Origin: Dipteris shenzhenensis
Taxonomy: Eukaryota
Reading direction: 5' to 3' (one strand)
Assembly: GCA_047967505.1 (NCBI GenBank)
Contig: CM106538.1
DNA length: 64,000 bases
Position 1 is the stretch's first letter. Every line of letters starts with the position of its first letter. The notes under the pieces are model-generated. The model was given only the letters and a program-made list of their open reading frames with translations, had not been told where the DNA came from and did no database searches. Of the stretch, positions 26,545-57,600 are shown piece by piece. Made by a program: the position numbers and the translations under genes.

Positions 26545-26562
26545 TGGTGTGGCTGCTGGGAT
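26545..26562 (+). promoter_or_regulatory. Primer-binding site complementary to tRNA-His(GUG)
   Basis: TGGTGTGGCTGCTGGGAT is the reverse complement of the plant tRNA-His 3' end ATCCCAGCAGCCACA-CCA (tRNA sequence recalled, not searched). Confidence 0.85.
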
Positions 26563-32319: not shown

Positions 32320-34420
32320 AGGGTGTTACAGAAAAATTATGTTGAAATGAATAAAGATGATCAAAATTTTTATTTAGCATGGTCTGTAAGACCTAGGGAA
32401 AACAATATGAACAAAATAGTGTTTGAGTACTCATTCGGTTCAAGGATTGTTTGTCACAAAGCATATAGACTTACACATTGTCTTGGCAACAAAAGGCTAA
32501 AAAGATTACAGGCCCACCTCTATAAAGACCCCCACATTTGTACAATAGTACAAATGAGAGTGCTTGGACCACATGGCAACATGGTATGCTCGTGGTTGCA
32601 AGACTTTGTGTAAAAACATGCTCAGGCTCTTCCAAATAGTGACTAGTTGCACTTATCGGATAATTTCTCCAAGCTGAGATCCATTCCATGTACAAGGATG
32701 CCATGGTTATTGCAGGTGACAAGTACGTGACATACCAGCATTTTTGTAGGATTTGGAAGAATGAATTCAACAACGTGAAGATACCAAAGCTTTGTCGCTT
32801 TGGTGTGTGTGCCACATGCGTGGACTTTAAGGCCTTGCATAATAGAAGTCAAGGACAAGAGAGAGGTGTGTGTAATGATGCCGTGAAAACTTGCTTCGTT
32901 TTGACAAAAATTGTTTTCTTGCAACATCTAATTGTTTTCTATATCTGCAGAAGAAGCAATCACAAAGTTGCATATGCATCGAGAAATGCAAGCTCTAGAA
33001 AGGAAGAAGTTAGCGAAGCATTGCAAGAAGAGCTACCAATGGCTTGATAAGTACATAACCATCATCATTGATGGGATGGATCAAAAGAAGACCAATCTTC
33101 CACACTTCAAACGAGTACCCAAGGATTTGAAAGAGGAGAACTTCATCACATATCATGTAGTTGGATGCATGATCTACCATGGTGAATAAATCCCCAAGGT
33201 TTATCTAATGACACCAAATGTAAGAAATGATCCTAATCTCACAGTTTCCGTTCTTAATGATGCATTGAGGAATCTTACACAACCTCTTCCAAAAGTGTTG
33301 TATGTCCAACTTGATAACACATCGAGAGAGAAAAAGAATCAAGTTGTGTTGGCATATCTTTGTATGCTTGTGGAGAAAGGCATATTTCTAAAAGTGAAAT
33401 TAGGATTCATGATGGTGGGTCACATACATGACCATATTGATCAGATGTTTAGGCAGTTCTTAGTAAAGCTAAGAAGGAAAGAAGCATGGGATGGGGATGC
33501 AATGATCCGCATTTTACAGGATGCATATGTGCCAAAATCGATAATTGCAAACATGGAAAAAACAATAGATTTCAAATGCTTTGTGTTTGGTGACAACGAG
33601 TGAATTGATTGATGTATTGAGAAGCTCAACGAGTTAAGCTTTCAACACCAATTTTGAATTAAGAAAGATTAAGAAGGCACGACGTTGTTGTGGGGGAAGT
33701 TCTATTCCACATCACCGACTTGGGTTCCAGTCAAAGGATTGAAGTTCTTGAAGTGTGTTCCAGAGCATGAGTTGTATGTGGCACCCTTACAACCCTTACA
33801 ATTAGTGAGGGAGCTGCAATGAGCCATGAAGGAGGAGAGAGATATAAACCCTATAAGTTCAGTCAATGAGATTAGAGAAACAATCCAGCATGCTGCAACG
33901 CATTTTGAAGATGTGGTGTGGACATGGTGGAATCCATTCTTTGCATCCCAAATACTTATCAATCACCTACTAAATGACCCCAAGATGTGTCAGATTTTAG
34001 TTGGCCACAATGCATTGAACAAGATTTTGTAAATGTGCATATGAATGCTTCTTCAAGTGCGCATTTACATGCAGCTTCTAAGAAGAACTATCTTGGGGAG
34101 GAGAGAGAAATATACCTTGGAGCATGAAAGTCCAAAAAGGCTAAGGAAAGGGTTCAAGAAATGTGGAGTGGTAGCATCGAGGTGGGTATGATGGTTGCTG
34201 TGTTAGCAACAAATGATCCTAGTGGATTTCCTTTTTGGATTGCTAAAGTTGTGAAAGTCAGAAAGGAAGGTTCAAACACCAAGTCAATAGAGGTGCATTG
34301 GTTTTTCACCAAGTCCATGGATGCTGTCACGAGTCGATATAACCCAAAGATGGTGGTAACAAGGAAGCGTGGCCAAAAAGGGAAGAGGGCGACAAAGAAT
34401 TATCCAAGAATTTCTTACAG
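32320..34420 (+). pseudogene. Sola-like DDD transposase remnant with introns
   Basis: Reads CRFGVCATC...LHMH, IIIDGMDQKKT.LPHF, LYVQLDNTSREKKN and FMMVGHIHDHIDQMF, with C-terminal PFWIAKV. GT-AG intron at 32866-32950; several stops. Confidence 0.65.
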
Positions 34421-35456
34421 ATACTATGCATACCTCCAAGAACAACTAACCCACGAACAAAAAAAACTTGCTGACTCAGAAATTGCAAAAGAGAGGTCAC
34501 AAGAGACAATCACAAGATTAATAGATGAGAAGAATAATGAAAAAGGCTTGGTATATCCAACAAGAGCTTGCTACATTGACTAGGAGATTAGAAAAGATAA
34601 AAGGAACCCCTCTAGGTTACAAGCATAGGATCAAGCCCTTGCAACCAATGGAGAGCTTTGCATATGGTGGTGGAGCAAGGAAGCGCAAGGTGAAAGCTAC
34701 AAGGTATATATCTTTGGTTACTTACAAATGAGTCATTTATTTTTCTAATGTTATCATGATTTCTACATAAATTTCATGAGGTTATTGGAAGAAATTCCTC
34801 TGACAAACTTCGTGCCGTAAAGAGTGTAGTTAAGAAGAAAGAATTCATTTCTATTCTTAGGGACCCTCGTCGATGTGCATTGTGACATGCAATATCACAA
34901 GAGGTTGCAACTGATTTAGAGAATCTTGTAGATCCATCGGAAGTTGTCCATGCATGTGATGCTACTGGCATTAGTTGACAAGGGTACTTAGCTGTGTATA
35001 ATGTCTTTGTAAATGCACTTCGAGGTCAAGGCATTAAGAATCCTCTATTGCTGAGACCAATATACATTAGAAATGCAAGGAAAGAATCTCAGAAAGCATG
35101 ACATTGGAAGGTGACAAAATATGAAGAGGGGAGAGGAGAAGAGTGGAGATGAGGAGAGAGGGCACAGCTAGAGAGCACACCACAAATGACTAACTGTACA
35201 CTAGAATTAGTTAAAAAAATAGAATATATACAAACCCTTTTAGGGTTAGGGTTAGGGGATCTAACCCTTTCCTTTATAGCACTCTATAAGGTTAGTGCTA
35301 TGCACATATGATCACGTGATGGTGCTATGCACACATGATCACATGATGTTGAGCGTGAACTCTCAACACCTTCCCTCAAGATCAACATCATGAAGTAGGC
35401 CTTCCCTCAAGATGATGATTCTGGGGAATAGAAGAAGGACTGAGCATTACATTCCA

Positions 35457-38400: not shown

Positions 38401-40127
38401 TCAGTGGAACACCCAAAATGTGAGAATGCAAATGAGAGAAGCTCACAGGGGGCTAAGAGGCACCACAACCTAGGACCAAGTTTCTTAGATCTAGTTGACA
38501 AGCTGAAGAAATGTATGCTTATTTATTTTGTTGCATTTGAGCTGACATGGCATGCTTATCTGGTACTGTAGCTAGCATCATGTATAAGCGTCCTTCCTTG
38601 ACACCTTTTGCTACTAGCTGACCTCTTTTGGATTTGTCTCTGATAGTGCATTCATCACCATCAAAGATGACTTTGTAGTTGTGTTCAGTCATTTGACCTA
38701 CTGACAAAAGGTTCTTGCTGAGCTTCGGAACATAGAGCACATCTTTGACTAATCCTTTTGTACCAGTGAAATTGTTCATAGGGATAACACCTGTCCCTTG
38801 AACCGGATTCGGTGTATTGTCTGCTGTGTAGATGACATTCTTTTGACCTTCTAATGGCTTCATTTCTGTGAACCATTCCTGATGATTTGTCATATGAGAT
38901 GATGCACCGTTGTCGATGTACCAAGGATCCTGTTCCACTTGGTCGACTTGATAACTGAAATCCTCTGGGATTGAAATTAGTGTCTAGGTGCATTGTATCA
39001 GTCTGATGCAATTCCTCACTTGCAAGAAACATATTTCCATGTTCATTTGCAAAATGACTGTGACTAGAATGTCCACCACGATGATTTCCTCTTCCTCGGG
39101 AATTCCCTCGATTACTGCTGGATTGACCGCCTTGGTCATACTGTTTCTTGCGGAAATCTCTTTCATAGTGTCCAAACTTGTGACAATAGTTGCATTGAAT
39201 GTTTGACACATTGGTGGATGCATTCCCTCTTCCTTGAAATCTTCCTCGATTGGAATGATTTCCTCTTTGTTGATTCTGATGTTGCTGAGGATGATGCTGA
39301 TGTTGATGCTGATTCTGACTTTGATTTTGTTGATGATGACCACTTTTCTGATATGATCTACCTCTGTTTCTGCCTTTGCCTCTGCTTCTGTCTGAAGCTG
39401 TGAATGCCTGATCATTAGAATGACCTTTACGTGCTTGAATGGCCTGAGTCCTGAGTTCTTCACCAAGTAGAACTGACTGAAGTTCTTCCAGTGTTGGAAT
39501 TTGCCGTTGGATGGCAATACTCTGGACTAGATTCTCATATCCTTCTCCTAGTCCATTCAGGATTACTTGAACCATTTCTGCAGGATTCATAGTCTCTCCT
39601 GCTGCTGCAAGTTGATTGTTGTAGTCTTTGATGCGGAGTACATAAGCATGACTGGTTTCACTGCTATTGCAGAAACTCTGGTTGATCTGGTTTCTCAGGG
39701 TGAGAATCCTGGATGTGTTCTTGGACTCGTAGAGAGCTGCGAACATATCCCATGCTTCTTTTGATGTCTTGACTGTGTTGAGCTGTCCTAGCATGACATC
39801 TTGCACATTCTACTTGATCAGGTGATAGGCATACTTGTCTTTCTTATCCCATTCTGCTTGAGCTCGGGCAATGGCAGGATCTGCTACTGGTGTGGAAACT
39901 GTTTGTGTAGATGTAGATCCCGATGTAGATCCCGTTGCTGGTGCTGTGACAACAGATGGAGTAGAGCTACTGGTGGTTGGATCGGCCAATGGTCTAGGTA
40001 TAGATCCGTCGACATACTCCCATTTGTCCTGAAGCACAAGAATGGTCTCCATTCGGTATTTCCATGTACCGTAATTGGAGTTGTCTAACTTAGCAGATGC
40101 CTCCAGATTGAGGTTGCTAGTCGACAT
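35457..40127 (-). pseudogene. Copia gag-pol (integrase-RT-RNase H open over 821 aa; gag/PR disrupted)
   Basis: ATG at 40127 (MSTSNLNL). Stops at 39810 and 38016, frameshift at ~38940, ~400-bp insert at 38135-38535. Motifs WYIDNGASSHM, WHKRYGH, HTDVWG, RSDRGGEY, YVDD, ADIFTK. Confidence 0.93.
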
Positions 40128-40899
40128 GGTGCAAACAATGTACTCAAAAGTGTCCTGAAAAAACTCTATATGAATCAACTGCAAATACACTGAAGATGCC
40201 AAGTGAAATCTCTGTACCATCGGTGAAGATAGAACTGTAGTATATAAGATCTGATCTGTATTACAAGGCTTGTGGCAATGATGCCGGGAATAGCCAAGAG
40301 GCTTTACAAGGCTGAAAATGATGTGCACGATGCCGTGAGATAGCCGAATAGGCTTTACAATGGTGGCATGTGTGTGTGAAATCAAGTGCTATCTGCCCAC
40401 TGAATCAATCTGCAATGCCTCTGAACTCTGAAGTCTGCTCACTGAACTGATGAACGTAAGGTTTCAAGTAATGTAATGATGTGAAATCGGATGTGTGGTA
40501 TGGACTGACTCCGAGTAGGTACTAGTCGGGAATTTCGGGCATGGCTTAGATTGGCAACTTGGGGAATTCAAAGCGTCCCCTCTATGGCGATCTAGTCTAC
40601 TCTGATCTAGATCTAAACCAACCGTCGATCGATGAAAGAGCAGCAAATAATTCCTTTTCTTTTGTTCTTTTTAAGTGCTGGGTCAGATGTGTCGATGTAG
40701 AGGCAAATGTGCGTGAAGGAAGTGGTTTTGACGGCGAGGCTCAAATGTGAGTGTAACTTGTGCCAAAATGTGCATGTGATGTAACGAGCGCATAGAGCAC
40801 AAAAAATCGAGCGACTTTCCTTTTTGGAGCACCCTCAAATTCTTCCTGGATCAAGAGATACGACTTGATCTAGGTGGAGGAGCAAAAGGAGTGCAAATG

Positions 40900-41345
40900 G
40901 TGCTCAATGATGATGTGTCACTGTGAGTCACATGTTGGGATGATGTGGCACTGTGCTTAACAAGAGGTGTGCCAGTGAAGCTCTGTGCTGAGGTGGCAGG
41001 AGTGTGCACATGCAGTGTGTGCACGGTGTGCCTGGCAAGGGACTGTGCCTGCAGAGGGTCAGTGCTGACTGGACTGCTGAGGTGGCAGTGCTGAGGTGGC
41101 ACTGATGACGTGGCCTGATGATGTGGCCTGGTGACATGGCACTGATGACGTGGTAGGTGATGTGGCCTGGTGGCGTGGCAGTCGATGATGACATGGCAGT
41201 CGATGATGACGTGTCTGCTGACGTGGCAGTCGGTTGCCACGTGTCAGATTTATGAGGCGCTTATCTGCCACGTGGCAGATAAGATGACGTGGCGAACTGA
41301 TGACATGGCAATTGTGGCTAAGGCTATCTGCCACGTGTCGCTAGG
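40900..41345. repeat. Short tandem repeats rich in (T/C)GACGTGGC/CACGTG in the Copia leader
   Basis: Repeated TGATGACGTGGC and GATGACATGGCA. Perfect 24-bp palindrome at 41260-41283. Confidence 0.85.
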
Positions 41346-44300
41346 TTGCTTCACAGAATCTTTTTGAAGATTCTAACGGAATCTAGGGAGATTTCGTCGA
41401 GTCGATCGTGAGAGCCTTAAGCTCTACGTTCGCGTTGGCGTTCTCTGAGAAGTCGTCTGAGAAGTCGATGGAGATGGAAGCTACAGGAGGCGCTGTTCGA
41501 AGTCGGCTGAGGCGATCGCAGACGGCTTCCTCCTCCATAGCCAGCGCTTAGCCATCATCGCACAACGATCCAGAGCTCCTTCGCTCTGTTTCGGGTGGCC
41601 GTCGATGGCTCCTAGGAGGCGTCGTTGGTCAGAGCGCGGGTGTGGAAGCTATAGGTAGAGCGAGGTCGTCGTTGAAACTGAGCCTTTGCTGGTCGTCATG
41701 CGGGTCGCGTAGTTCAAGTGGCGGCGTTGGAGTGCTCGTTTATGGTCGTTAGAGCCTCCTTGACGTTTGGAGTCGTTGAAGGCGAGTCGTTAAAGGCGAG
41801 GAGCTAGGGTGTTGGAGGAGTAGGAGTCGATGCAGAGCGGCTGTCGTTGGAGGCCACCTTGGCCTTGTTGGAGAAGGACGTCGCCATCTCGCTGGCAGCC
41901 AAAGGAAGAGAGTCACTTTGAACTCTAGGCTCATGCGATTCGTTGTTGAAGATGGAGCGTCGCTTCGTTGGCCACACCAAAGATGTCCTCAGCGTTGCTC
42001 GTTGTCTCGCTTTCCTTTTGAACTGGAGTTGGTTGGTAAAGGCAACCTTGAAAGTTGGCTATGCTCAACACAAGGCTTGGCTATGGCGGAAGGTGAGCTC
42101 TGCAACTATAGATCATAGCCTTGTTGATGAAGCTTCTACTCAGGAGTCTTATCAGCAACAACAGAACACCTCGCACACACAACAACAGACTTCGCAAGCT
42201 CCTGGCTGTGAGCTTGGGCATTTCGTGGAAGGTCAAGGGCTAGCCATTGGTATGTCATTTGATATCTCATTGTTGCATACAAGAGCTGAGATCTTTTCTC
42301 TCTCAAAACAAGCTCTGTCTCTCTCAAAGAAGTCTAGGCTCTCAATGAACGGAAGTCTCTCTCTCTCTCTCAACTCAAGAAACACCAAATAAACTCTCTC
42401 AAATGACGAAAATCTCCTTTCGATGGACGGAATTTTCTCTCAACGGAAGAGAATGGAACACTCAATCTCTCTCGATCTCTCAATCTCTCAATCACTCTCA
42501 CAAGAAGGATGGTACCTCAACGGAAGGCAGAATCATGCTCTGATACCATGACAAAATATGAAGAGGGGAGAGGAGAAGAGTGGAGATGAGGAGAGAGGGC
42601 ACAGCTAGAGAGCACACCACAAATGACTAACTGTACACTAGAATTAGTTGAAAAAATAGAATATATACAAACCCTTTTAGGGTTAGGGTTAGGGGATCTA
42701 ACCCTTTCCTTTATAGCACTCTATAAGGTTAGTGCTATGCACATATGATCACGTGATGGTGCTATGCACACATGATCACATGATGTTGAGCGTGAACTCT
42801 CAACAAAAGGCACAAACAAGACAAATGTCCAACATAGCAAAAAGAAAGGAGGACCAACTACCAAAGGGGCAAAGCAAGGACCAAGAACTTTTGAGTACAC
42901 AGAGCCTAATAATGTTTTTTTGGATGTACTTAGGGTCCAAGCTACAATGGTGGAGTTTTACAACATGAAAGCATGGGGTAGGGTAAAATTATATTGTTTA
43001 GAGACCTGGAATTTTTATTGAAATCTTTTCTAATCATGTAAATCTTTTAATCTATCAAATTGTGAAGGAAAGTTAGTATTCATTATCTAATTGGATCAGT
43101 GTGAGGTTGTAAGAGGCCACAAGTTGGAGAGGGTTAGTATTACTTTGATGCAGAAAGTCCTTGGACATGCCAAACATAAGGAAATTAGGGAAGATTTTAG
43201 TGTGCAATCGAAAAAGCACATTTGGTGGCTTGCCACATTTGAACTTCCTAAAGAGAGACACCATTCTTGAAATGGGTATTTGATAGATCTCCAATTCCAA
43301 GTGTCATAGATGTGCAAACGAAAGGAGAGTTGCTTCAAGTTGAAGGGTTTGGATCATTTCAAGTTGAATGGCACGTGGCTGGAGATCTTAAGACATTGAA
43401 ATTATGTTTGGAATAGAATTGAGTGCAAATGCGACATATCCATGTATTTATTGTATGCACTCACACCAACCTCGAGGCAGTAGCATAGGAATACATAGAG
43501 GGAAAGAGCAAATAAAAAGAGGAAAAGACTTTGGGAATGCTAAAGATGTAATGAATGACATCACAGATGATGAGGCTAACAAACGAATGTATTGGAGCAA
43601 TGGAGAAATGAGCTACAGTCAAAATGCTGCACTCAACAGAGATCAGAACGATAAAAATTGGGATCCAATTTTAAACATTCCATTACAAAGAGTGCATTTC
43701 TATGGTTACATGCAGAGATGCAGCTCATTTGATAAATTGCTTTACTTGCACATTGTATATGCATGGAACATGAAACCGGAGGAGAGAGTGGCATCATGTA
43801 TAGCAAGGGTCAAAGCTTTACTCTCAAGCATGGGTCTACATGGGGGGAATGTAAAGCTAATCAAAGACGCACAATTGTCAGGAAAATCAGAAAATCTTCC
43901 AAATAAAGTGTCTGTGGGAGGCTCTAAGGATGAAGGTTTTTGTCCAATCATGGAAAACATCGATTAAATATGCATTAGAATTATTGGAAAAAGTTATGTG
44001 ATTGCACCACTAATTTGGAAGCTGATCCTCATGTCAGAACCTTGAGAATACATGTTTGGAAAGAATTGGATAATTTGGTAAAGATCTTGAGGAAGCCGAT
44101 GATGATGTGCAACTACATAAAGTCATCGTGAAAGAGTTCATTGAAGCCATGGTAGATGGATGGGGTGAATCACACATTACTCACTACATGGTATGTTTGG
44201 TCTTTGCTATTTTCAAAATTATAATTGCAATCAATTTATTCTTGTTTAACTCATGTGTTTTTTCTATGTATGCAACACATTCTTTATGCTCATGGTCCAT

Positions 44301-44429: not shown

Positions 44430-46250
44430 AGATGGGGTTAATTTCTCTTGGGATGAGGATTGTGACCATGGGTTTACACAAATCATGAATGCTCTGCTTC
44501 AGAACCCATTCTATGCAACACAGATTGGTCAAAGGCTTTCTATATCAATCATAGGTTTGGTGAGCACACTTTGGTAGGTATTCTTCTCTAGCAAGGGGAG
44601 GATCGATTCATGTATCTAGTTCGACTTGCTTCTTGACAATTGCTCAACATCGAACGATGCTACTCAAAGGCTGACAAGCATGCCTTGTCTTTGGTTTTCT
44701 GCATTGAGAAATTTAAGCATTATGTGCCTAGAAAGTCCTTCATTATAATCTCTAGCAATGGTCTTGCAAAGCAGGTTCTTCAATCACCAAATCCCATGGG
44801 CCGGTTGGCCAAATGGTTGGCAGTTCTACAAGAATATGATTTTTCTTTCAAAATTGTAAAAGGGGGTTGTTCCAACTTGAAGAATGCTTTGATTGATTTA
44901 GAGGAGTGCCTCGATGTAACCCTTGTAGCAGCCATAGAAGTGGGGGATCCATGGTATGGCGGTATCTACAGGTTTCTAATTGCTTTCTCCTTTCCTCTAG
45001 AAAGTACTAGCTCTGAGAGAAAGAAGATCCGCAGAGATAGTAGGCACTACACCCTCTTTGATGGGGTGTTGTACCGTCAAGGCATGGATGGGATACTAAG
45101 ATGGGCCATTGATGCAGATGAAGTACCTAAGGTATTGCAGCATTATCATGATGGATTTTGTGGAGGCCACTATGCCAGTGACTATACAGCTAAGAAGATT
45201 TTACATGCTGGATACTATTGGCCGACCTTGTTCAAGGATGTCACTTTGTATTGCAAAACATGTGAACCATGCCAATTCTTTGGTAGGAAGGATTTGCGTC
45301 CTGGGCAACATCACCCAGTGATGTCCATCCGTTCGTTTCAGAAGTGGGGAATAGATTTTGTCGAGCCCTTGCACATGACTGCCCACAAAAAGAAGTATCT
45401 TTTGGTAGCCACTCAGTATGTCACTAAGTGGGCTGAAGCTATCGTCCTCCCCGCTGCAAATGGTAAGGCAATTTCAAATTTCATATTTGAACGTATCTGC
45501 ACAAGGTTTGGGACACCCATGGAAATAATCTCCGACCATGGGAGTCCATTCTTAAATGAAGCAGTGGAGTTACTCATGGATCGCATGGGTATTTATCATC
45601 ACACTTCTAGCATCTATTATCCAGCATCCTTGGGCCAAACGGAGCAGACCAATGGCCTCCTTTGTAAAACCATGGGAAAAATGGCCACAGGGAACAGGAG
45701 CCAGTAGGATCAGAAGGTCACAGAAGCCGTATGGGCTTACAACATCACTCATAAAACATCTACAGGTCACACTCCTTTTGAGTTGGTATATGATACTGAG
45801 GCTGTTTTACCACTAGAGATAGAGATTCCAGCTTTGAGATTGGCACAAGAACAGAGGATGACAGAAGATGAACATGTAGAGGCTCGGTTGGTGCAACTTG
45901 AGAAGCTAGATGAAACTCGACGCCTTGCCCTACATCAAATAGAGATTCAAAATAATTGACAAAAGGCCTGCTTGGATGCTAAGATTCACAAGGGATGGGA
46001 AAGACACTTTGCTGAGGGGGATGTTGTGCTATTCTTTGATAATAGATTGGACCACCAAATGGATAAGAAGTTTCTGCCACTGTGGACCAGTCCATACAAA
46101 GCCATCAAGGAATGTAGCAATGGGTCTGTACAAGTTCAGGAGCTGCATGAGCCATATGGCAAGAAGGTGATCAACAAGCGTTATCTCAAGCCCTTCTTTG
46201 TGCATGATGGACCCAAGCATGGAAATGATGTGCATTCCCTGCCTGGGGGG
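44430..46250 (+). pseudogene. Gypsy RT-connection/RNase H-like + integrase
   Basis: Reads FSWDEDC, GRLAKWLAVLQEYDF, HDGFCGGH...CKTCEPCQ, KWGIDF, ISDHG, GQTEQTN. Stop at 45707; continues to the PPT. Confidence 0.9.
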
Positions 46251-46255
46251 GGAAC

Positions 46256-47228
46256 TGTTATGGATAAATTTGTCTAAGGAAAAAGGCATTAATATGTGTG
46301 TGTGTTTGTATGTGTGGCAATAGTATAATAAAATATGGTGTGCATGGGGCCCAGGGTTAAGGTGGCAGGGCATGACCATGTGCCACCCTTCCATGTAAGA
46401 GGACCCATAAGGTGTGATCCATGGTATTAATATTATAAAATGTAAGGTGGCATGGCTCCTCCATGTGCCACCCCTCCACCTAAGCTGCATTTAGTGAGAT
46501 ATGGCTCAAAGTCCATGGGAGAAGTAATATAAAATAGGTGGAGAGGGATATTATATTGTGTTATTCCCTCCATATAGGATAGGCCCATGTGGGGGAGGTA
46601 TAGATAGTCCAAGGATGCAAGTTAAATAATGGAAAAAGTAGGATGAGGTGGCAAGATTCCTTGTGCCAACACTTGTCCTCCTAGATGTTTGAATGTATTA
46701 TAAAATTGGGAAGAGACCAAGGGAGTATCATAGACTTGGGATATGGGAGTTGATATATGTGAAAAAATGTGGCCAAGCATTATCGCACACAATTGAGTGC
46801 GTAACTGCCTAGCCCACATGGGAGACTCTTCCACACACACCATGCATGTGGGAGGATGCATTTATTGGGAGAGACCCTCTCTCTTGGTTATAAAAGGAGG
46901 GGGCTATTCCTTGATGGGACACGCTCATTCTTATAAAGCCTCCTAGGTAGTACTTTGATTTCTCCCTTCCCTTCCTTTCAAAATAAAGCATGGTCCTCTT
47001 CCCTTGATGTCTCCATCTTTACATTCCTCCTCCCATCATGTACATGCTTCTCTTCCCCCTCTCCCTTTCCCCTTGTGTCATAGTCTCCCTCTTCATTCCC
47101 TCCCCTTCTAATTCCTTATCCCCTCCCACGATAACGTTTTGCCCTCATGTTCTCCTTTCCTCTGTGGCCCTCGAGCGTCGCCATGCTTAGCCTCTAGCCT
47201 TTGGTCCTGATTTCTTTGCCAGCTAATA
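46256..47228 (+). repeat. Gypsy 3' LTR
   Basis: Preceded by the PPT GGGGGGGGAAC and followed by CCAC. Confidence 0.93.
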
Positions 47229-47232
47229 CCAC

Positions 47233-47995
47233 TAGTGTGCTCCCACAGTGGAGCTTAGATGGTGATCTAGACAGATATTAGATAAAGAGCTACTAGCTGG
47301 AAGATCTAATTTGATCTGAACTGATCTGATACAATGGACTGGGGAGGTCACCTCTTTATAGCTATGAGGGTGGTAGTCAGATCAACATAATGGATGGAAC
47401 TGACCAGTCAACCTAGTCAGTGAAGCCGACCAGTCAACCTAGTCAGTGGAACCGACTAGTCATTTATGGAATATTCAAGGAATATTCCCTATACTATCGC
47501 CTCGAGGGCTCTCACCCCTGAACCCCCACTAGGGGGTCCGTTGGCCCCCCTGGGACCCCCCAGGCCCTAGCAAGAATAAGGGGCTCCCACACAATCACCT
47601 TTCTACCATCAACAGTCTCATTGATGGACCTCATCTGACATGCAAGTCAGGATCCATCTAGTGTCCCGGGCTCACACATGGCTTCTCCTCATATGGGGGC
47701 CTTACAACTTGAGCACCTTGAACCATTGGTGGCTACCAGGAGGGTGGGGCATTGAGCATATCTAACGCCCCCCCTCAATGTCCACCCGTATGTGAACTAC
47801 CTTCTCAGCCCAATGCTGAGTCTCTGAAGATGATCCTTCCCGAGTGCCTTGGTGAAGATATCTGCTCCATTTTGCTCTGTTGGATAGTGGACCAATATCA
47901 CTATCCCGTCCTCGTTCAAATCACACACATAGTGATACTAAATCTCTATATGTTTTGTGCACACATGAAACACTGGATTTTTAGCAATGGCCATG
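47233..47995 (-). mobile_element. Copia 3' remnant (RNase H end, PPT, LTR part)
   Basis: Minus strand NGADIFTKALGK at ~47840-47875. PPT GAGGGGGGG at ~47768-47776, then LTR-like sequence. Confidence 0.65.
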
Positions 47996-48824
47996 CATGT
48001 ATCTTTGAGTTATAGGACATTAAGTTGTAGTCAAAGACTTCAAAATTTTCTTGCGTTTGTTGTCACAAACTAAAGGAGTGAGCCTACCCTCTCTCTTTTT
48101 TTAAAATGTGAGGTTTAACATGAGGAAATAAAAAGAGATTCAAAGCATTGAAAATGATGGACATGCACACTAAATCATAGTCCCAGCCAAGATATTATTC
48201 ATCTACTAATTCAAGTGACAAAGGTGCATTTAATGTATATCATGTGTTTGGGTTTACAAGTTGCCAACATTTGGACTATGGCTCCTTCAAAATATAAAAG
48301 CACACTACATTAGGGGAGTTTTGGACTCAAAAAGGGCCTCTTGGATTAGTCCCTTAAGATTTGTGATTAGCAAACCAGCCAATGGGAAGGCTTGGGCATT
48401 AAAAGAATGGAGGATTCCATATTGGCCTCTCATTCGTGGAGAGTCCTCCTTGGTCCCCACTGGGCTTCCACTTGCCTCTCTCTTTCCCCCACCACCTCTT
48501 GAGGCATTTACTCCCCTTTTTCACTTTTGGATGGTCCTCATACCCTCCAAGGCTCTCTTGGTAGGCCCCCAAATCCGCGACATTTTTTTCCCTCCAAAAA
48601 ATTAAAAATTTCCAATAGTATCCCTAGCACCCCAAACTCCTCCCAGGAGTCTCCCCAAACTATCCCCATTAGCACCCCACCTTTCTTTGAGCCTCTTCCT
48701 CCTCTCTACCTCCTCTTAGCCTCCTCCCAACCTCTTCCTCCTCTCAACCTCCTCTCAGCCTCCTCCTCTCAACCTCTTCCTCCTCCCAACCTCTTTATCT
48801 TTCCTTGCTCCCATTCTTTCTACA

Positions 48825-49268
48825 ATGGTGAAGCACTCCCCTTCCCCGAGGCCAAATCTATCAATTCAATCTTGTGTGGGTTGCATTTTGAAGGACAACA
48901 GTGATATTAGGATCCCTCAAGAGTTTAGGTTAATGTCATGGGTGACAATGCAACCATTTGCAATAGGTCCATTCAAGGTTTCTAGAAAGGATAGAGCAAA
49001 GAAAGAGAAGCATTGGAAGGGTCGCATTGTTGGGTTTTGTGATAGAAAAAAGGGACTTAAGGTGAAGGTTCAGCACGTGTACATGGCTCGAGACATGAAC
49101 TTGGATCTTGCCAGTCAAACTTGCTTTCCTTCAAATTGTATCTTTGTTTTACATTAACTTTTTTTCATTTTCAGCTCAACTATGTATTCTAATGATTGTA
49201 TGTGAGCATGCGTTTTGAGAGAGGGTGTCTTGTGGTAATAGTAGAGGGGGAGGGGGGAGGGAGGGGGG

Positions 49269-49311
<43 letters not shown>

Positions 49312-49375
49312 GGGGGTGGAGGGGTGTTAGGGGGAGATAGTAGAGGGGAGAGATTTGTGAGTGAGTGAGTGAGTG

Positions 49376-49433
<58 letters not shown>

Positions 49434-50356
49434 TAGGTAGAGAGTGAGAGAGGAAAACTAATTGGCCCATTAACATCTTTCTTTGCTTTCTATGTAGATA
49501 TCTTTCCCTCTACCAAAGTTGAAACTCAGCCTCTGGATAGTCTCACGAGAATATTTCAAGCTTTCCTTCAAATATTGGGGAATTAATGTTCTCAGGATGG
49601 AGTGTTGCCTCCTTGACAAAGTCTAGTTTTTTTTTCTATAATTCATGTTACCAAGTTCCTCGAAGAGAAGGTGGATATCGAAGCCTACGTCCTATTCCTT
49701 TCCCTAACTTTGATAGTCCATAATAGCCTCTTCCTGATCCATTCTCTATAGATGCATTTAGAATGAAGATGAGATCAAATATTCAATCATCAATGAAGTT
49801 TACCTTCAATTCAAAATCTGTGGGTGTAAGTTGGTTCATGCCCTTCATTACATTTATTTATTTTTTCAAATCAGTCTTCATTCACAAGACAAAGACCATG
49901 TGGGTCTGCCAAGGCCTAGAAAATGAATTTCTTGATAATCTTCTATACCCAATGTGGGATGTTAGGGAGGGTTTGCAGAAGGGCAACCATTTTCTATGTA
50001 TACTTACTAAAGAAAGTATAGTAATAAGATATCAAGTAGTGCGGAGTATTTTCTACATGAGATACGCTTACAGACGTTGGAAAAACAATCATGGCACATG
50101 GATACCTATGGATTATGATATAGTGGACACCACAGAGGTAGAGATACATATGCCCAATGGGGATATCCAATATCTTGAGGTCACAGGTAGTTGGAGCTTG
50201 AAGCACATTCGAGAATACATCGTTGTCACCTTTGATGATAGTGATTTTTTCCTTACACTAAATGGGAAGATAGTGACAAGTCGACTCAAAGGAACATCAA
50301 TGCTTGAGAAATGGAAGCCTCCTTGTAACTTGTCCATTCATACTAGTATTGAATAA
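48825..50356 (+). pseudogene. Intron-containing cargo gene, BAH-like N-terminus (decayed)
   Basis: HWKGRIVGFCDRKKGLKVKVQHVY, then an intron with GA/GT repeats, then IFPSTKVETQPLDSL and ORF 49763-50356. Confidence 0.45.
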
Positions 50357-50838
50357 ATGTAATAGCTTTTGAAGTGTGATGTCATTTGTACTGGCAATGA
50401 GTATACTTAATAAAATTAGTAGTTTTTGAGGTGTTGTAATAGTTTTGAAAATATCATATAGTTTTTGAAGTGTGTTGTAATAGCACTTAAATAAATGTAA
50501 AAGTTTTGAAACTGTGTTGTAACAGTTTTTGACTAAATGTAATAGTTTTTGTAAAGTGTGATGTCATTTGTACTAACATAGGGGCCCCCCCCTAAATTCC
50601 AAAAAAAAAATCCAGTAGTTTAGGTGGTGGGGGGAGGCGGCGGGAGTGGAATATGATGGCAAATTATTTAGGCCAATATATTACATTGTCCAATATTTTA
50701 TTACCTAAATTATAGTCATACCTTTAAGGTATTTAAAGAGACTGAAGTCAACTATATAAAGGGCCATTAGGTATGACATAGCCTTTATTGTCCTCATCTC
50801 CTAGACAGTCTGTTCTTGCCATCTTCCACAAACCTCCA

Positions 50839-51473
50839 ATGGCCACACCCCGTGAGGCATACCATGACTTCGTCATTTCTACTCATCATTCGAGTAGAGA
50901 GGAAGAGTTGTATGACATTTTTTATCATCAGATAGATGTCATCGGCACAGTCGACAAGCATCTAGATCTCTTTAGAGTTGTGGCAGATTATGTGAGAGAG
51001 AAAATCAAGCCTTACCTAATCCCTAGCTAGACATAGATAGAGTATAGTGGGTTTCTGTGAATCTCCTCATTGACTGTCACCAAGCTGATAGCACTTTCAA
51101 GTTTAGGTTGCAAAGAATTTGCAAATTCCTTAGTCCAAAAAGTTTTAGAAGGATTTCCAAGGATGAAGAGTTGGATCTGCAAGCGGGTCCTATAGGAACT
51201 CATTTTGTATCCCTGGAAATAGCCTATTGTATAACTCTTTCGGAAATGGAGGACACAGATGCACCTCCATTCATCAATGTAGAGCCACCTCTTCTTCTAA
51301 CAAGGCAAGATGTGGACATTGAGGAGAATCCTGATGTGGTTGTAGAAGCTGCAGTTGCTCTAGATTGGTCTAGCGCAACTTTGTACAAGGGAAAGCACAC
51401 AACAAAAATAGAGCAAATGATAGAGTTGGGTGTGGTTCCCGAAGCAGGAGGGATATCATCCCTCACAGGATAG
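50839..51473 (+). pseudogene. Unknown cargo ORF(s), probably the N-terminus of the ParB-MTase gene
   Basis: MATPREAYHDF... and the acidic ORF 51057-51473, broken by a stop and a frameshift. Confidence 0.35.
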
Positions 51474-51645
51474 CCAGAAGAGAAAGAGGAGAAAAGAGAG
51501 CAAAAAGAGGAGGAAAAAGGTATGATAGATGAAGTTTTGATGCAAACCCTTCTGTATATTTTGATTGAAAATAGAGAATATTTATTATTGATTGGCATTC
51601 ACTATATTAAAAATTTGAGAGAAGATAAAGTATTGGGGGCACTCT

Positions 51646-52050
51646 CCGCTTGGGAGAGCATAGTCATGGGTTGTGTCAAAGCAGCATATTGATCAATGAA
51701 GCGGCGATAGTATCCTGCTAGATTGACAAATGAGCATACGTAACGTTTGGTTGTTGGTGGGGAGAGCTTGAGGATGGCTTCTACCTTCTCAGGGTCAAGC
51801 TTGACACTCTCGGATGAGACAATATGTCCCAGTAACCTCCCTTGAGTGGCTCCAATGGTGCATTTCTCTGGGTTGAGATTGCCATTCGCATCATTGACCC
51901 TTTGGAAGGCCAACCTAAGCTTCATGACGTGCTCCTTATGTGACGAGAATATACAAAAATCATCTAAAAACACCTCCAAGAAATCCCCCAAATAAGGAGC
52001 AAACACCATCTGCATAAATCTTTGAAAGGTAGCAGGAGCAATGCACAAGT
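51646..52050 (-). pseudogene. Inserted Gypsy RT fragment
   Basis: LCIAPATFQRFM...EVFLDDFCIFS...LLGHIVS...LAGYYRRFI. Confidence 0.9.
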
Positions 52051-54263
52051 TGTGAACTACATTGTGCTCGTGCATTCAAAAGATTGTCCAGACAAGGCAT
52101 CTTTTGATCATCGAAAAGCAAATGATTATAACTACTTTGTTTTTGGAGGCTCCCATTCAGCAGAAGCAAAAAGGCAGTTGAATATTAAGTTTCGCGCAAC
52201 TCTCATTACAAGACATGTAATTGTACAGTTTATGCTGGTTTGACTAATTCAGAGGCAAACTTACTGGCTTTTGATCACAATAATGACAATGAGTATAGGA
52301 AGTCCATGTCTTGGATAGAATGGGTTCATTTCTATCACAATGAGTTCATTACGAAACTCAATGAGGATCGTTCTTTGATCACTCTAGAGTTTCGCTTGTC
52401 TTTGTTGAATGAGACTGGGATTTCTACAACAATTAAAGATTCGTCAAGGCGAAGTGACAGCTTCAAATCATGGGACGGGATGCTTCAAATTGCATTTCGT
52501 AGTGGAGAAGTTTGGGATTTGATAAATGCAATTTTATCAAAGTGGGAGAATTTTTAAATCAAAGGGCAGAATAACTCATACCTAAAGGAGTCAAGAAAGA
52601 AACCTAGACCTTGAAGGCATTACCTGAAGAAATTTGAGCCACAGCATGGAAGAGCATGTAGGGAATTAAAGATGAGATTCTAACTAAGTCTGTGCTTTGC
52701 AGAGTGGTGTTTGGGGATCTCTCTTTGGATGAAATGGGCAATGAATTTGATGAGTAAGCAAACTTCTCTCCTTTGCATCATGTCTCTCCTTGATTTTACA
52801 TTAATCTCTTTACAAATAATGTTTCAATAGACTTTGTTTCAACTGTAAAAGTGAGAAGAATTTTACATGTGTTTTCAATGCAAGCATAAAATATACATGA
52901 GAATGCAGGAGGCAATGATCCGGCAATTGAACATGCCAGATTGGGATGGTGTTCACGGGAGGAGTATCCAGAGAGCAGCAGGATGGAGAGCTTGGCTTTA
53001 TATTTCAATGTATTCAAAAGCATGGTATGTCAAATTTGGTATACATATTCTAATGGAATTTTTCTTTTGAATTGTAGATTTGAATGTTTAAAATATTGAA
53101 CTGTTATTTTGACAACAACCTTTAGAAAAGAGGCAAGAAGGGATCTAAGAGTAGAATGATGCCTACAAGCTTTAAGCAATTGATTGACCGGGCTGCAAAA
53201 GAAAAAGAGCATCGAACTCGACAATGATCTAACACTCTTAGTGGTGACATGTTAGAGTTTGACAAGGGGGAAAACCATCCACCAAACTTTTATCGTGTGC
53301 TCAATGGAGATTGCAATGAATTTCAAAGATAGTTCCAAAGAATGAGTACACGTTGGTCATTGTAGACATACCATATGGATTTAATGTTCTTGGATCCACC
53401 TTTGATGACAAAGAAAAGGAACTAATAAGTCTTCTTGACCAGTTCATGTCAATTACAATGGCAACGCTTTGGTGTGTCGTAATTTTTCATTCAGACTTGT
53501 AGTCTGAGGCAGTGATGAGTGTCATTAATGATGAATGTGCTGGACGTGACCACCTTTATTGATGAGTGCAGCAATGAAATGCAAAGATTTTTTCGGGTCA
53601 ATTATTATTGTTATAATTGTGTTTTCTTTTGATAAATTTAAAACTTATTTTTGTTGCATGTCGTAGGATGAAACCCAATGTCAGATAAATGAAAGGACAT
53701 CGATTCACGTCTACTAGAGAAAACATTTCAGTTGGGTATTGGTTTGTGGATGGAAAAAAAAATATTGGTCACATCAATTTTCCCTCATCTACTCCATATA
53801 CTCCTGATTATTTCATTATTCTAGCTATGACAAAGAAGCTCAGGCATGTGACCATGGATAAGAATGGGGAGATAGTAAATCCTTATCAAAACCACAACTC
53901 CTAATTAATCAGCTCATAGATCTATTTTCAAATGAGCATGAGTGGGTACTCGATCTATTTGCTGATTCAGGCACAATCACAGCATGTGCCTTAAAAAAGG
54001 GTTGAAATGTAATTGCAGTTGAAAAAGATCCTATTCAATGTGATAACATAAAGAAGAGAGTGACTGCTATTCATCACTTGCCTAATGAGCATCAGGAGCT
54101 TGGTTTGAAAGGTGGGAAGTTCGATGCAGATTCCGTGGTAGCCTCATCACGAGAACCCCAACCTCCTGAGATATTAAAACCCAGTTTTATGGATGCAGGT
54201 GAGCTAGCTGATACATGGGAGAAGGAGGTTGTGAAAGAGAAAGTGATTGAGAAACCTATATAG
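52045..54263 (+). pseudogene. ParB-like domain + beta-class N6-adenine/N4-cytosine DNA methyltransferase (multi-exon, decayed)
   Basis: ParB-like YFVFGGSHSAEA...GLTNSEANLLAFDHN. MTase motifs in order: VLNGDCNE (~53300), LVIVDIPYG (DIPY 53365-53376), VNPYQ-KP.LLINQLIDLFS, WVLDLFADSGT (DLFADSGT 53952-53975), VIAVEKD. Confidence 0.8.
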
Positions 54264-54286
54264 GAAACCCAGATTGGGGAGGGTGA

Positions 54287-54640
54287 TGAAGATGAGGTAG
54301 ATGACACATATGGGAGAATTGAGTAGAATCTAGTTATATAATTGTATTGCCAGTTTTTTGTATTTGAATGGTTTCAATAGACAAGTGTTCTTAAGACATT
54401 TTAGAATCCATATGCTTTGAATGTTTTGAACATTTAGTTGTTCTCATTAATTTGTTGTTGGGGATGGTTATGAAGATGATGTAGATGACACATATGGGAG
54501 AATTGAATAGACTCCAATTATGGAACTATATTGACAATTTTGTGATTTTGAATTGTTTCAATAGACAAGGGTTCTTAAGACATTTGAGAATCCATATGCA
54601 TTGAATGTTTTGAAGGACGCATTTACTTTTTCCCATTAAT
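54287..54640 (+). repeat. ~184-bp diverged tandem duplication
   Basis: TGAAGATGA.GTAGATGACACATATGGGAGAATTGA at ~54287 and ~54471. Confidence 0.8.
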
Positions 54641-57600
54641 TTGATGATATTATTGAATTCTTTTAGTACTTTATGTGATACTACAAAGTTTAACTTAAGA
54701 AATTTGATAAGGTTATGTTACTACACATAGGATTGAAAGTTGTATCATGTAGTTTTTCTATTGAAGATAAAAGGTCAAAGGAAGGAAAAAAATTATAGAC
54801 TTCTTGATTTTTCTAAATACATTGATATTGTGCTCTGTAGTCGAGGTCCTTCATAATTTATGGGCATTATGTACTGAAATTGATAGGATTTTAAAAGTTT
54901 TGAAATTTTCACTACCCAAAATATGACCTTTTTTTGAAAAAGTTATAATTTTAATGAATTTTTGAGGGAATCTTAAAATGGGTACCAATGTTACATACCT
55001 AGATTAGATGTTACACTATTAATTGCTCTAATGTATCTTTGCCGACAACCTTGTGGCCATAACATTGACGAGTTGTGGCATACTCTGGTGCAACTTCGAT
55101 GTGCAAGGTGCTTTTTTGTGGTTTGTTGGTGCGATCTTCCAATGTAGCCATGAGAGGGATTTAGAAATAAGGCCTTGGATCAAGGCCTTAGATCAGCTCA
55201 AAGAATAGAATAGCATCAATGGAAACAAGTTTGGACAATGGAAAGATATAATAGGATCAATGGAAGCATGTTTGGGACAAAATGATGAGAAGAAGTTGGA
55301 TTTGGGTGTTGCAAAGTGCTTATGATAGAAGGAGTATGAATGTGGGATTGGAAGATGATTACGGCGAGAAGGAGTAGGATTTAGATGTTGAAAAGTGATT
55401 TGGGTGCATAGGCATGGTTTGGGGGAAAGTTTTGAAGAGTTTTGGGCCATTTTGTGCACTTTTGAAAAATTTCAAATTTTTGGGCTAGGGTGTACTTGCG
55501 AGATACTTTTTGGGAATGCGGACCACCTAAAGGTTGTAAAGAGACTTAACTTTTTGAGAGTGGGGGGGCCCTCCAACTGGGAGAGGGAGGTGCACTTTTG
55601 GGGACCACCAAGGACCTAGGGAGATGTACTTTTTTGTCCCCATATGGGATGATGGGACCCTTTGTAGGCCTTATTAGTTCTTAATCCATTTTGCTAATCC
55701 ACTCCTTATGAGGCCCTTTTTGAGTCCAAAATTCCCCTAATGAGTCCTTGATCTTTGCAAGCTTGGGTGCTTGTGGAGCCAATATATTGTTTGGTTCTTT
55801 TTCGTTGTGGATGTGCTACGTTCGACTATTGCATTCACATAGGCCTGCACTAGAAGACATCCCTCAAGATGTTAATGACAATTTCACACACATTTGGAAG
55901 AAATTAATGACTTGGTACAAGACACCTTGTGGCTATAACTACCTTCTTTGTCTTTTTTCTTGTTACAGCAATATGTGCATTCAAACATTGAGTGAGGAAA
56001 GCATGTGCATTAAACTCATAAGGATTTGATACATATGAAATAAAGCTCAATAATTGTTTTCCTATTGATTATTTATCTTACCAAGCACGCTTTTGTTCTC
56101 TTTACAACAGCCTGGCACATTGCTAGGCTTAAAAATGGAGGGAGATTCTAGCCTCGAGAAGTAATGTGCGTGTGTATACATATAGAAATGCACATGGGAA
56201 GGGGCAAACAAAGAGACAAGTTTTTAGAAAACAAAAAACTCTAAGTGATTGGTTTTCCAATTCAATGGCAATGAAACTAGCAAATTTTAAATCATAAACA
56301 AGAACTTATTTGAAATTTGAACTGATTGGTTTTCTATTGACTAGAGAAACATCTCTTGTAGCAAACATAGAGGGAGACTTGAGGTAGTGGAGGTGGGTAG
56401 GGGTGAGATTTGATTGGGGATTTTCAAAATATTTTTTCAAGGGATTTTTCCAATGCTTGACCGGCAATACTAAAGAAATTACAAAAACTCAAATTTTTTG
56501 GGATCGGCAAAATTGCATGTATTTGATGGGCAAAAACATAGAAGTCATCAATGAGAGGGTCAATCTATAGCCTAGAGGTGCAGTTGCAAGTGCTCGAAGT
56601 CAGCACCTCAAAACTTGTGGTTTTGTCGGTTTTTAGATTGATTTACCCAAAGTCTGAATTAACCACTTTTTAATGATGAAAGTCAATATTTCTTAATTTC
56701 AGCAGGTGCAAAACGAATTAAAGGTCAGTTTTTTTCTAGCCGTTGTGGTGGTGACAAGTAACATTGGGAAAAAGTTTTTTCCCCGCAATCACACACCCCA
56801 TGGGCACATCCACCCGTGGTCTATGTTGACAAGAAGTAGGGTTCTTCTTGAGGTAATCAAACGGGAGCAATGAACTCAAGTTGGTGGCACAGTGTTCGAA
56901 AAAAGCCTTAAAGTACAAATATCTACAAAATTTGAAGAACAAAAACCCTTTAAACTTGAAATTTCTTTAATATATAAGTTTTAGATTTTTAGATGAAGGT
57001 TTTCCACATCTAAGACACTCTAGATCTATATAATTGATAGGCATTGCTCACTTGGCTCATGCTTGGGAGTGGGCCCCCTGAGAATACCTAGCTAGGTTTA
57101 GACTTGTGTCTCCGTAATGACATCTATGCATGGATGAGGTTGCGTGGTATGGGATGTGTAGTTTTACCTGGGATGGAGATTGCCTGACGTCTAAGCTCAA
57201 GGCTAATCCTGGGATCTATGGTTGGGTGGTGATGCACTACATGATACCACACGTGTCCGTGCATTTGTATTCTCATCTCTGTCCCTTCCTCTCCTTTAAT
57301 CAACGCAAAGAATGTATAAATCAACGCATCAAGCATGTAAAGAAGAAAGTAAATGACCCTGTCTCGCGTTCCTCTTAGGCAGCAACCTGTCCACCCAAAC
57401 CTTTGATCCTCTCTCGTGTTTCTCTCAGGTAGCAACTCGTCCACGCAAACCTCTCATGTGTTGGCCTATGCTTGTAGGTTAACACAAATCTGGATTTCTA
57501 GTTGAGTGCATTCGTGTGTTGCTCCAAAGAGTGTTGCGAGAAGTTCTACCTCCAAGATCGGGAGAGACCGGGGGCCATGACACGTAATAAGATGTCCCTA

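Follow-up and report, generated by a model that had tools for sequence, protein, structure and literature searches.

A decayed ParB-like/amino-methyltransferase gene in Dipteris shenzhenensis and its probable origin in a land-plant DNA transposon family

A DNA amino-methyltransferase gene that lies, broken by stops and frameshifts, between two inverted repeats of a plant genome raises the question of whether it was carried there by a transposon, descended from a host gene or introduced from bacteria. Such a gene is found in a 64,000-nucleotide stretch of contig CM106538.1 of Dipteris shenzhenensis (GenBank assembly GCA_047967505.1), the whole of which is referred to here as the window. An original prediction had described the locus as a CACTA-like element with terminal inverted repeats (TIRs) that carries a prokaryote-type methyltransferase with a ParB-like domain. 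Our analysis indicates, with a probability of about 60%, that window positions 52043-54263 (plus strand) represent a dead pseudogene fragment of PM, an accessory gene of a family of TIR DNA transposons of land plants in which PM is paired with a second gene, X.

The methyltransferase relic

The presence of a decayed, intron-bearing relic of a beta-class N6/N4 amino-methyltransferase at approximately 52043-54263 (plus strand), between the arms of the repeat, is confirmed. Its exon remnants are as follows:

52043..52754, plus strand: relic of PM exon 1, with the ParB-like segment (YNYFVFGGSHSAEAKRQL, LTNSEANLLAFDHNNDNEYR) and the helical middle part, covering family-profile positions 253-517; two frameshifts and three in-frame stops
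52885..53024, plus strand: relic of PM exon 2 (HKIYMRMQEAM...ESLALYFNVFKSM); one frameshift
53126..53559, plus strand: PM exon relic with motif IV (VIVDIPYGF), its aspartate at 53365; one frameshift and three in-frame stops
53669..54263, plus strand: last PM exon relic, with NPYQ(K)PQ containing a frameshift, motif I and VIAVEKD; an in-frame stop at 54003 ahead of the natural one at 54261

Catalytic motif IV (DIPY from 53365) precedes the S-adenosylmethionine (SAM)-binding motif I (DLFADSGT from 53952), with NPYQ/KPQLLINQLIDLFS between the two and VIAVEKD following. This is the beta-class order, as originally claimed, and intact relatives are arranged alike. The SAM loop of the relic reads FADSG, with the first glycine changed to aspartate, where intact relatives have FSG(S/T)G. 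The suggested profile check was positive, as PF01555 (N6_N4_Mtase) matches the window piece 53862-54002 with 27.7 bits against a cut-off of 26.7 (E = 3.2e-6); together with the motif order and the family relatives described below, this upholds the assignment to beta-class amino-methyltransferases of the PF01555 type.

The description of the gene as spliced and decayed is likewise borne out. Three intron-like gaps separate the exon relics (approximately 52755-52884, 53025-53125 and 53560-53668), and the end of exon 1 in the relic (…LSLDEMGNEFDE) coincides with the end of the single-exon open reading frame (ORF) of relatives (…LSLDEMVVELSK); therefore, the position of the first intron is common to both. 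In-frame stops occur at 52555, 52635, 52659, 53500, 53686 and 54003, and two further stops at approximately 53225 and 53330 were read by eye in the frame of the exon starting at 53126. Since at least eight stops and at least five frame changes have accumulated in total, this copy of PM is without function now. The prediction that the copy is dead while intact siblings may exist proved correct, as intact PM genes are present in environmental contigs.

A family profile built from 31 PM members matches six pieces of the window, which cover profile positions 253-768 with E values from 1e-45 to 6e-3. The segment YFVFGGSHS...EANLLAFDHN is the best-conserved part of the family by this profile (E = 4e-22 and 1e-45). 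With the same profile, positions 1-252 of PM found no match anywhere in the window. The repeats do not enclose a whole gene, as had been supposed, because the first approximately 250 profile positions are gone and a fragment of a reverse transcriptase adjoins what is left: its NAPATFQ motif starts at approximately 52045 on the opposite strand, and the strong PM match starts at approximately 52049. A tblastn extension of the PM match to 51989 was taken as chance, as it overlaps the clear reverse transcriptase match.

The PM family and its intact elements

With the C-terminal piece of the relic as query (its single TGA codon read through and entered as X), a HMMER search of 1.84 billion representative proteins returned 81 relatives at E <= 1e-3 and 14 at E <= 1e-10, the best of them from Ginkgo, Adiantum and Riccia. 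Seven of the ten relatives looked up bear a species name, namely Ginkgo biloba (two), the fern Adiantum nelumboides (four) and the liverwort Riccia sorocarpa (one), and one cluster (P0033) includes a JGI/IMG member with a DNA-methylase name. Later searches added three Ginkgo models, Adiantum capillus-veneris and Ceratopteris richardii, as well as 25 unnamed ENA/JGI proteins of 445-600 amino acids in clusters of up to 60 members; a word-indexed search found no longer homologues of the C-terminal piece. Residues 123-612 of a Ginkgo protein (P0002) are colinear with window positions 52094-54167 through frames 2, 1, 0, 1 and 0 at 32-60% identity, and the identity of the relic to plant relatives is 43-60%. 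PF01555 scores 65.7 bits on this Ginkgo protein and is found in five of the six family proteins scanned. In two Adiantum models (P0053 and P0083), PM sequence is fused to pieces of copia/gypsy integrase (compare window 37251-37766 and 45006-45854); these fusions are probably annotation chimeras in repeat-rich DNA.

In a tree of 166 alignment columns, the relic is sister to Ginkgo and three environmental proteins (support of 84 in the SH-like approximate likelihood ratio test, SH-aLRT), on an end branch of 0.82 and with a best identity of 49%, a placement that would be expected for a neutrally decaying copy of a gymnosperm-type subfamily. No close prokaryotic or viral relative was found in protein searches and in pattern scans of contigs, scans of viral and prokaryotic genome contigs with two short peptide patterns found no relatives of the PM N-terminal part, and the prokaryote-like matches to the methyltransferase part are without ParB domains. 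The family is old in plants and has conserved introns, and the proposed horizontal origin from bacteria is not supported.

As for the enzyme type, a profile search against solved structures ranked M.MboIIA (6e-8), M.RsrI (1e-7), DpnA and CcrM above N4-cytosine enzymes, which matched more weakly, and NCBIfam gave weak matches to adenine methyltransferases alone. The methyltransferase thus appears most similar to N6-adenine enzymes, and N6-adenine is favored as its target because the best solved relatives are of this type and motif IV begins with aspartate. The canonical catalytic tetrapeptide of beta-class amino-methyltransferases is (D/N/S)PP(Y/F/W). In PM the first proline is replaced: 35 of 36 loci read D-I-P-Y, whereas Adiantum has D-A-P-Y and Ginkgo D-I-P-H. 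In several environmental elements (L004, L006, L010, L024 and others), an intron splits motif I (FSGTG | TT.ACALK) just after LDLFSGTG; this intron is missing from the window relic and from the Ginkgo proteins.

The family was defined from 80 loci (L001-L080; 1.2-15.6 kb) fetched out of 153 relatives in metagenome contigs. Nearly all sufficiently long loci contain the methyltransferase exons after exon 1, and the upstream flanks of PM share a conserved block of 2.3-3.5 kb. This block is X, an intronless ORF of approximately 890 amino acids on the strand opposite to PM and divergent from it, which was present wherever the upstream flank reached at least 3.5 kb (13 of 13 loci). Its ORF spans 873-916 amino acids in eight of 14 loci examined and is shorter in five, with none listed in the remaining one. 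X matches PF25273 (DUF7869; E = 1.8e-52) as its sole Pfam family, and its neighbors in a protein language model are DUF7869 clusters of arthropods, tardigrades and rotifers. The motifs IDGMDQKKTCLP, YVQLDNTARENKN and FLLVGHTHDHIDQMFS, within which IDGMDQ, QLDN and GHTHDHIDQ give a DDE-like pattern, are invariant in nine aligned X proteins and survive in an X relic elsewhere in the window. X is presumed to be the transposase.

Similarity between copies ends sharply approximately 330-440 bp past the X stop, at inverted repeats. The TIRs recovered, in coordinates of the respective locus, are as follows:

L011: left 3144-3180, right 10918-10954; 37 nt, 81% identity
L003: left 698-730, right 8389-8421; 33 nt
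L036: left 180-216, right 7737-7773; 37 nt, 97% identity
L047: left 506-539, right 6516-6549; 34 nt, 94% identity
L024: left 1-26 (clipped by the contig end), right 8595-8620; 26 nt, 100% identity

All five pairs start with AACAC, the full-length repeats (L003, L011, L036 and L047) measure 33-37 nt, and the four complete elements span 6044-7805 bp. The PM gene of L011 is apparently intact, with six exons, and ends approximately 600 bp short of the right TIR. The ratio of nonsynonymous to synonymous substitution rates (dN/dS) is 0.07-0.22 for X, from the seven of 28 pairs with finite dS, and 0.083 and 0.089 for PM exon 1, from the two of 28 pairs with unsaturated synonymous change. ADIPYGF and NPYQKP are each retained in 35 of the 36 loci that hold most of PM. 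Because X is linked to PM in every locus with enough upstream flank, TIRs stand at the limits of similarity and dN/dS is low, these sequence data support the view that PM is a transposon gene and that a transposon family carrying its own amino-methyltransferase exists, as the original prediction had proposed. In one locus, L002, the 3' two-thirds of a further X copy (4012-5964) follow PM on the same strand and are 99.9% identical to the X of L009 (185-2476) from another assembly; either this copy is rearranged or nested, or the assembly joined two sequences there.

The stretch between X and PM is rich in palindromes. When perfect palindromes with arms of at least 10 nt and a loop of at most 12 nt were counted, 47 blocks fell in the X-PM intergenic stretches of 12 loci, compared with five in the remainder of the same loci, and ten of the 12 had at least one intergenic block. 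L009 contains approximately ten tandem copies. The arrays lie at the following positions:

L003: 4103-4300
L009: 3643-4144
L011: 6731-6833
L024: 3649-4096
L034/L036: approximately 3440-3670
L064 and L067: arrays also present

Their cores vary with the subfamily (GGAAGTCGATGC-N3-GCATCGACTTCC; AACTCGATAC-N3-GTATCGAGTT; AAATCCGATGCA-N-TGCATCGGATTT), and the half-site GCATCGA occurs inside the L011 TIR. These arrays look like parS-type binding sites. The window, scanned at full length, has no palindrome cluster, which fits the loss of the 5' part of PM.

The ParB-like domain of the original prediction fared less evenly. The segment that it had pointed out is present, and by eye the PM sequence EIREPH.LHVQNLK … YYVIGGSHSAEARRQL … EEAKLLAWDHNNDNDYR parallels NVR…SVSELADSV…YGVAAGGRRLAALNML…TENGHRRDM of a plasmid ParB_N protein. 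The language-model neighbors of residues 215-400 of one family protein (P0113) include DUF3723 in 13 of 30 cases (0.95-0.96), ParB_N clusters in five (0.92) and DUF6551 (0.90), the last of which we take to be a member of the ParB clan. The formal comparisons gave weak results: PF02195 (ParB_N) does not match in the PM family, DUF6551 matches are weak (ten of 31 members, best E = 0.025), profile searches of the PDB with PM returned no ParB, and an hhalign comparison with one plasmid ParB_N protein, a one-sequence template that carries little weight, gave a probability of 0.1. ParB-likeness of this N-terminal module is accordingly no more than plausible from its sequence features. The closest language-model clusters of this part are fungal DUF3723 proteins. 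DUF3723 is presumably an accessory gene of Starship giant transposons, and a link between the ParB-like part and Starship accessory proteins at a deeper level is possible.

The window unit and its alternative readings

The features of the unit that encloses the PM relic, apart from its exons, are as follows:

48308..48340, plus strand: left arm of the 33-nt inverted repeat; with one gap the pairing extends outward to 48304
55710..55742, minus strand: right arm of the 33-nt inverted repeat, with 32 of 33 positions paired; with one gap the pairing extends to 55745
48341..51601, plus strand: left half of the unit, with ORFs at 48720-49157, 49727-50356, 50782-51030 and 51048-51473
51602..52045, minus strand: fragment of a long terminal repeat (LTR) retrotransposon reverse transcriptase (NAPATFQ...FLDD box), with PF00078 (RVT_1) at E = 5.1e-10 on the piece 51602-52075
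54274..54646, plus strand: tandem duplication in the 3' tail, two units of approximately 185 bp, 85% alike

The 33-nt inverted repeats that had been reported are real. Their arms are 97% complementary, and the arm motif, with up to three mismatches tolerated, occurs at two sites of the window, both of them the arms, against an expectation of 0.00 in 100 dinucleotide-preserving shuffles. Local alignment of the unit ends gains ACT(A) on the outside with one gap (48304/55745; ACT(A)CATTAGGGG) and finds no subterminal likeness past this pairing; an exact scan of metagenome contigs found no occurrence of the repeat core. The repeats most likely close a 7.4-kb non-autonomous composite. The CACTA label is not supported, because the left terminus alone fits (CACTA at 48303-48307), 3-bp duplications are missing and no CACTA/EnSpm-type transposase has a Pfam match in ten scanned ORF pieces of the unit or in X. 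To read TAGTG, the right end (...AATGAGTCC) would need one deletion as well as a substitution. In the Pfam scan, which covered ten stop-to-stop pieces between the arms, two were significant (PF01555 and RVT_1) and the remaining eight stood at chance level. The 3.3-kb left half, with a (GA)n/(GT)n tract at approximately 49230-49450, shows no known family and no likeness to X, to the PM N-terminus or to any locus, and an Rfam scan of the window gave no match.

Our tentative reading of this 7.4-kb unit, held at somewhat below even odds, is that it is an internally deleted and filler-repaired derivative of a local X-PM element of the Ginkgo-like subfamily. It resembles intact X-PM elements in TIR length (33 versus 33-37 nt) and in size (7.4 versus 6.0-7.8 kb), and the 3' end of PM faces the right repeat at a distance of 1.48 kb (1.3 kb minus the local duplication), compared with approximately 0.6 kb in L011.

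A number of results weigh against the link between the relic and the X-PM elements, or against the account of the elements themselves. The window arms have no similarity to the AACAC termini or to any locus, with a near match (CACAC) at the left end alone, and the idea that the family itself terminates in these 33-nt repeats is not supported, since intact relatives end in AACAC...GTGTT. The interior is a mosaic, with a foreign left half and the reverse transcriptase fragment adjoining a truncated PM. Tblastn and profile searches found no X between the repeats, and no PM N-terminus was found there either, relaxed searches of 48303-52045 giving noise. Beside the arms there is no target-site duplication in any register checked by eye (flanks GCA/CTT or CAC/CCT), and one contig of the sequencing run X1 over 54485-55024 diverges from the window for 3 kb further. 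With regard to the family, the four loci that retain both termini, whose contigs may be chimeric, gave no consistent target-site duplication; X found no match among solved structures, and DUF7869 is its sole Pfam match, with none to KDZ, Plavaka or EnSpm; motif IV of PM is D-I-P-Y rather than the canonical D-P-P-Y; and the genomic context of PM comes from environmental contigs rather than from Ginkgo or fern assemblies. The unlike TIRs are not decisive, because in the tree the fetched loci belong to a fern-like clade and the window relic to a Ginkgo-like clade.

The strongest competitor, which we consider unlikely though worth serious attention, is that an unrelated TIR element, CACTA-like or of another superfamily, captured or was invaded by a reverse transcriptase piece and the 3' two-thirds of PM, in which case the repeats would say nothing on the mobility of PM; the probability left over by these two readings falls to other histories. 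The CACTA left end, the mosaic structure with its 3.3 kb of unrelated sequence and the departure of the termini from the AACAC ends speak for it. However, the right end is not TAGTG, neither a 3-bp duplication nor a CACTA-type transposase domain accompanies it in the pieces scanned, and TIR length, unit length and the position of the PM 3' end match intact X-PM elements.

Far less probable is that PM is a present or past host gene, for example a sperm-stage methyltransferase like Marchantia DN4MT1, and that the window holds an ordinary pseudogene. The named PM species (a liverwort, ferns and Ginkgo) all have swimming sperm, and PM introns are conserved. PF01555-type enzymes are reported to work in Marchantia sperm (bioRxiv 10.1101/2021.02.12.428880). 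However, many diverged copies of PM occur per assembly, X accompanies PM in 13 of 13 loci, and TIRs lie at the limits of similarity; DN4MT1, as described there, has TSPPY and no extra domains, where the PM motif is DIPY and the N-terminal part is long. The introns and the plant relatives in effect refute a third reading, a recent insertion from bacteria or phages, or contamination, which the domain type (typical of prokaryotic restriction-modification and phage enzymes) and a best plasmid match to an M.HindIII-like gene might suggest; that match is just 34% identical over 88 residues, the surroundings consist of plant retrotransposons, and the pattern scans of viral and prokaryotic contigs yielded no relative.

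Contigs of run X1, the one sequencing run listed with related sequence (9% of words shared with the window, and no RNA run among the matches), whose depth was resolved in 600-bp bins, also speak for the link between the unit and the family. Diverged contigs cover 12 of 12 bins inside it, from 48409 to 55620, at depths of 6-85; one 396-bp contig (55335-55739, depth 7) stops inside the right arm, and depth is close to zero past 56222. The flanks at 47207-48300 (depth 719-2708) and 55746-56221 (1325) show very high contig depth. The bins that hold the arms have depths of 2708 and 1325, which seem due to high-copy flanks rather than to the arms, because the contig with most of the right arm has a depth of 7. 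The unit thus seems to be embedded in a high-copy repeat. At the reverse transcriptase fragment, the run supports a joint 44442/51663 with strands opposite.

Other repeats of the window lie outside the unit:

32320..34580, plus strand: decayed X copy of the DUF7869 type (tblastn E = 9e-75 and 5e-84; profile positions 117-790 of 879)
35112-42805: young copia LTR retrotransposon with minus-strand ORFs at 35457-38015 and 38685-39809 and 257-bp LTRs 99.6% alike
25555-26551 and 46254-47239: pair of direct repeats of approximately 1 kb, 94% alike and 20.7 kb apart
5542-11778: approximately 3.5 units of approximately 1.78 kb arranged in tandem, 93-98% alike

The X relic retains IDGMDQKKT, LDNT.RE.KN and VGH.HDHIDQMF, contains several stops and has no inverted repeat around it. 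It is 18 kb from the PM relic and on the same strand, and neither strand nor distance fits the two as one element. It adjoins the left side of the copia element, and the direct repeats probably represent LTRs belonging to an older gypsy-type element, which now encloses both the X relic and the copia insertion.

Proposed self-marking by the element and its precedents

What is observed is that X and PM occur as a pair, closed by TIRs, that both are under purifying selection, that the catalytic motifs are conserved and that palindromes lie in arrays. An intact element consists of divergent X and PM genes with palindrome arrays between them, closed by AACAC TIRs at 6.0-7.8 kb, and PM is a multi-exon gene whose product combines an N-terminal domain, the ParB-like module, a helical region and the beta-class N6/N4 amino-methyltransferase. 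From this layout we infer that X may act as the transposase and that the ParB-like module may dock PM on the element's own palindromes, whereupon the methyltransferase would mark the element's DNA, probably with N6-methyladenine (6mA). Such a mark could keep the bidirectional promoter open, as an anti-silencing device, or couple transposition to replication. Transposition of IS10 is coupled to replication by Dam methylation. In its most specific form the proposal is that still-active DNA transposons in liverworts, ferns and Ginkgo-type gymnosperms run a ParB-parS-methylase system on themselves, in which a ParB-like clamp, joined to a methyltransferase for N6-adenine (or N4-cytosine), sits on the subfamily-specific palindromes of the bidirectional promoter and writes along the element a mark other than 5-methylcytosine (5mC) that blocks silencing by 5mC and histone H3 lysine 9 (H3K9) methylation or times transposition; we regard this form as speculative and rather doubtful.

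The closest precedent is found in red algae. A preprint (bioRxiv 10.1101/2025.02.11.637652) describes giant Plavaka (EnSpm/CACTA) and Mutator elements with two accessory genes, PAG2 (PF01555 and SET) and PAG3 (a ParB-like domain and a 2-oxoglutarate (2OG) oxygenase), the latter adjoined by tandem arrays of inverted repeats. Its authors propose binding and modification of the element's DNA by the element itself, and they also cite TET/JBP in fungal Plavaka and anti-silencing by VANDAL. Like the X-PM family, these are DNA transposons that combine a PF01555 N6-adenine methylase, a ParB-like domain and inverted-repeat arrays. On this published description, the two differ in that SET is the fusion partner of the red-algal methylase and a 2OG oxygenase that of the red-algal ParB-like domain, whereas methylase and ParB-like domain are parts of one protein in PM, and the red-algal elements are 17-19 kb long with an EnSpm-type transposase, whereas X-PM elements are 6-8 kb long, have a DUF7869 partner and AACAC termini and occur in land plants. 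Fungal Plavaka/KDZ elements with TET/JBP, as cited in the preprint, likewise are cut-and-paste families carrying an accessory enzyme that modifies DNA bases; theirs is a 2OG oxygenase acting on 5mC, whereas that of X-PM is a methyltransferase, and X is without a match to the KDZ or Plavaka Pfam families.

Other comparisons are more distant. Retrotransposons with acquired cytosine-5 methyltransferases (PMC5890265) and the methyltransferase domain of DIRS1 (PMC4738411) show that mobile elements can encode DNA methyltransferase-type domains, but these are retroelements with C5 or inactive group-2 enzymes, whereas X-PM is a TIR DNA transposon with a beta-class amino-methyltransferase whose catalytic motifs are conserved. 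Eukaryotic clades of ParB-associated methylases, known from haptophytes, chlorophytes and chytrids, are treated as cellular genes of these algae and fungi, and few N6-adenine methyltransferases are reported from land plants (PMC4738411). The ParB-Tls loci of phages and plasmids discussed in the same source resemble PM in combining a ParB-type module with an N6/N4 methylase; for PM, the pattern scans found no prokaryotic or viral relative of the N-terminal part, and the prokaryote-like methyltransferase matches come without ParB. Marchantia DN4MT1 (bioRxiv 10.1101/2021.02.12.428880) and bdelloid N4CMT (PMC8885841) are, as described, host genes that write N4-methylcytosine with a (T)SPPY motif. 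Like PM, they are nuclear PF01555-type enzymes of eukaryotes; DN4MT1 has no extra domains and N4CMT a chromodomain, whereas PM has DIPY, groups with N6-adenine enzymes and is transposon-borne.

No land-plant transposon with such a gene and no mention of DUF7869 was found in the literature searched, whose coverage was incomplete and left out most subscription journals, Repbase reports and supplements. As far as this search reaches, the X-PM architecture and its host range appear to be undescribed. It is rare for a transposon to bring an enzyme of its own for marking DNA; the known examples are fungal TET/JBP carriers, red-algal Plavaka and retroelements bearing a DNA methyltransferase (DNMT), and a land-plant family in which one protein unites ParB-like and amino-methyltransferase parts would join them. 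PM proteins now carry labels such as hypothetical protein or cellular "DNA methylase"; once the family is recognized, they would be marked as genes of a transposon. The value of the window copy is as a pointer to this family, which, with its DUF7869 partner and palindromes that covary with the subfamily, may represent a compact system for self-recognition and self-marking by a mobile element. The X-PM family would be a concrete candidate source of non-5mC methylation in ferns and gymnosperms, and if the self-methylating reading is true, transposons would account for part of the 6mA signal that is disputed in such plants.

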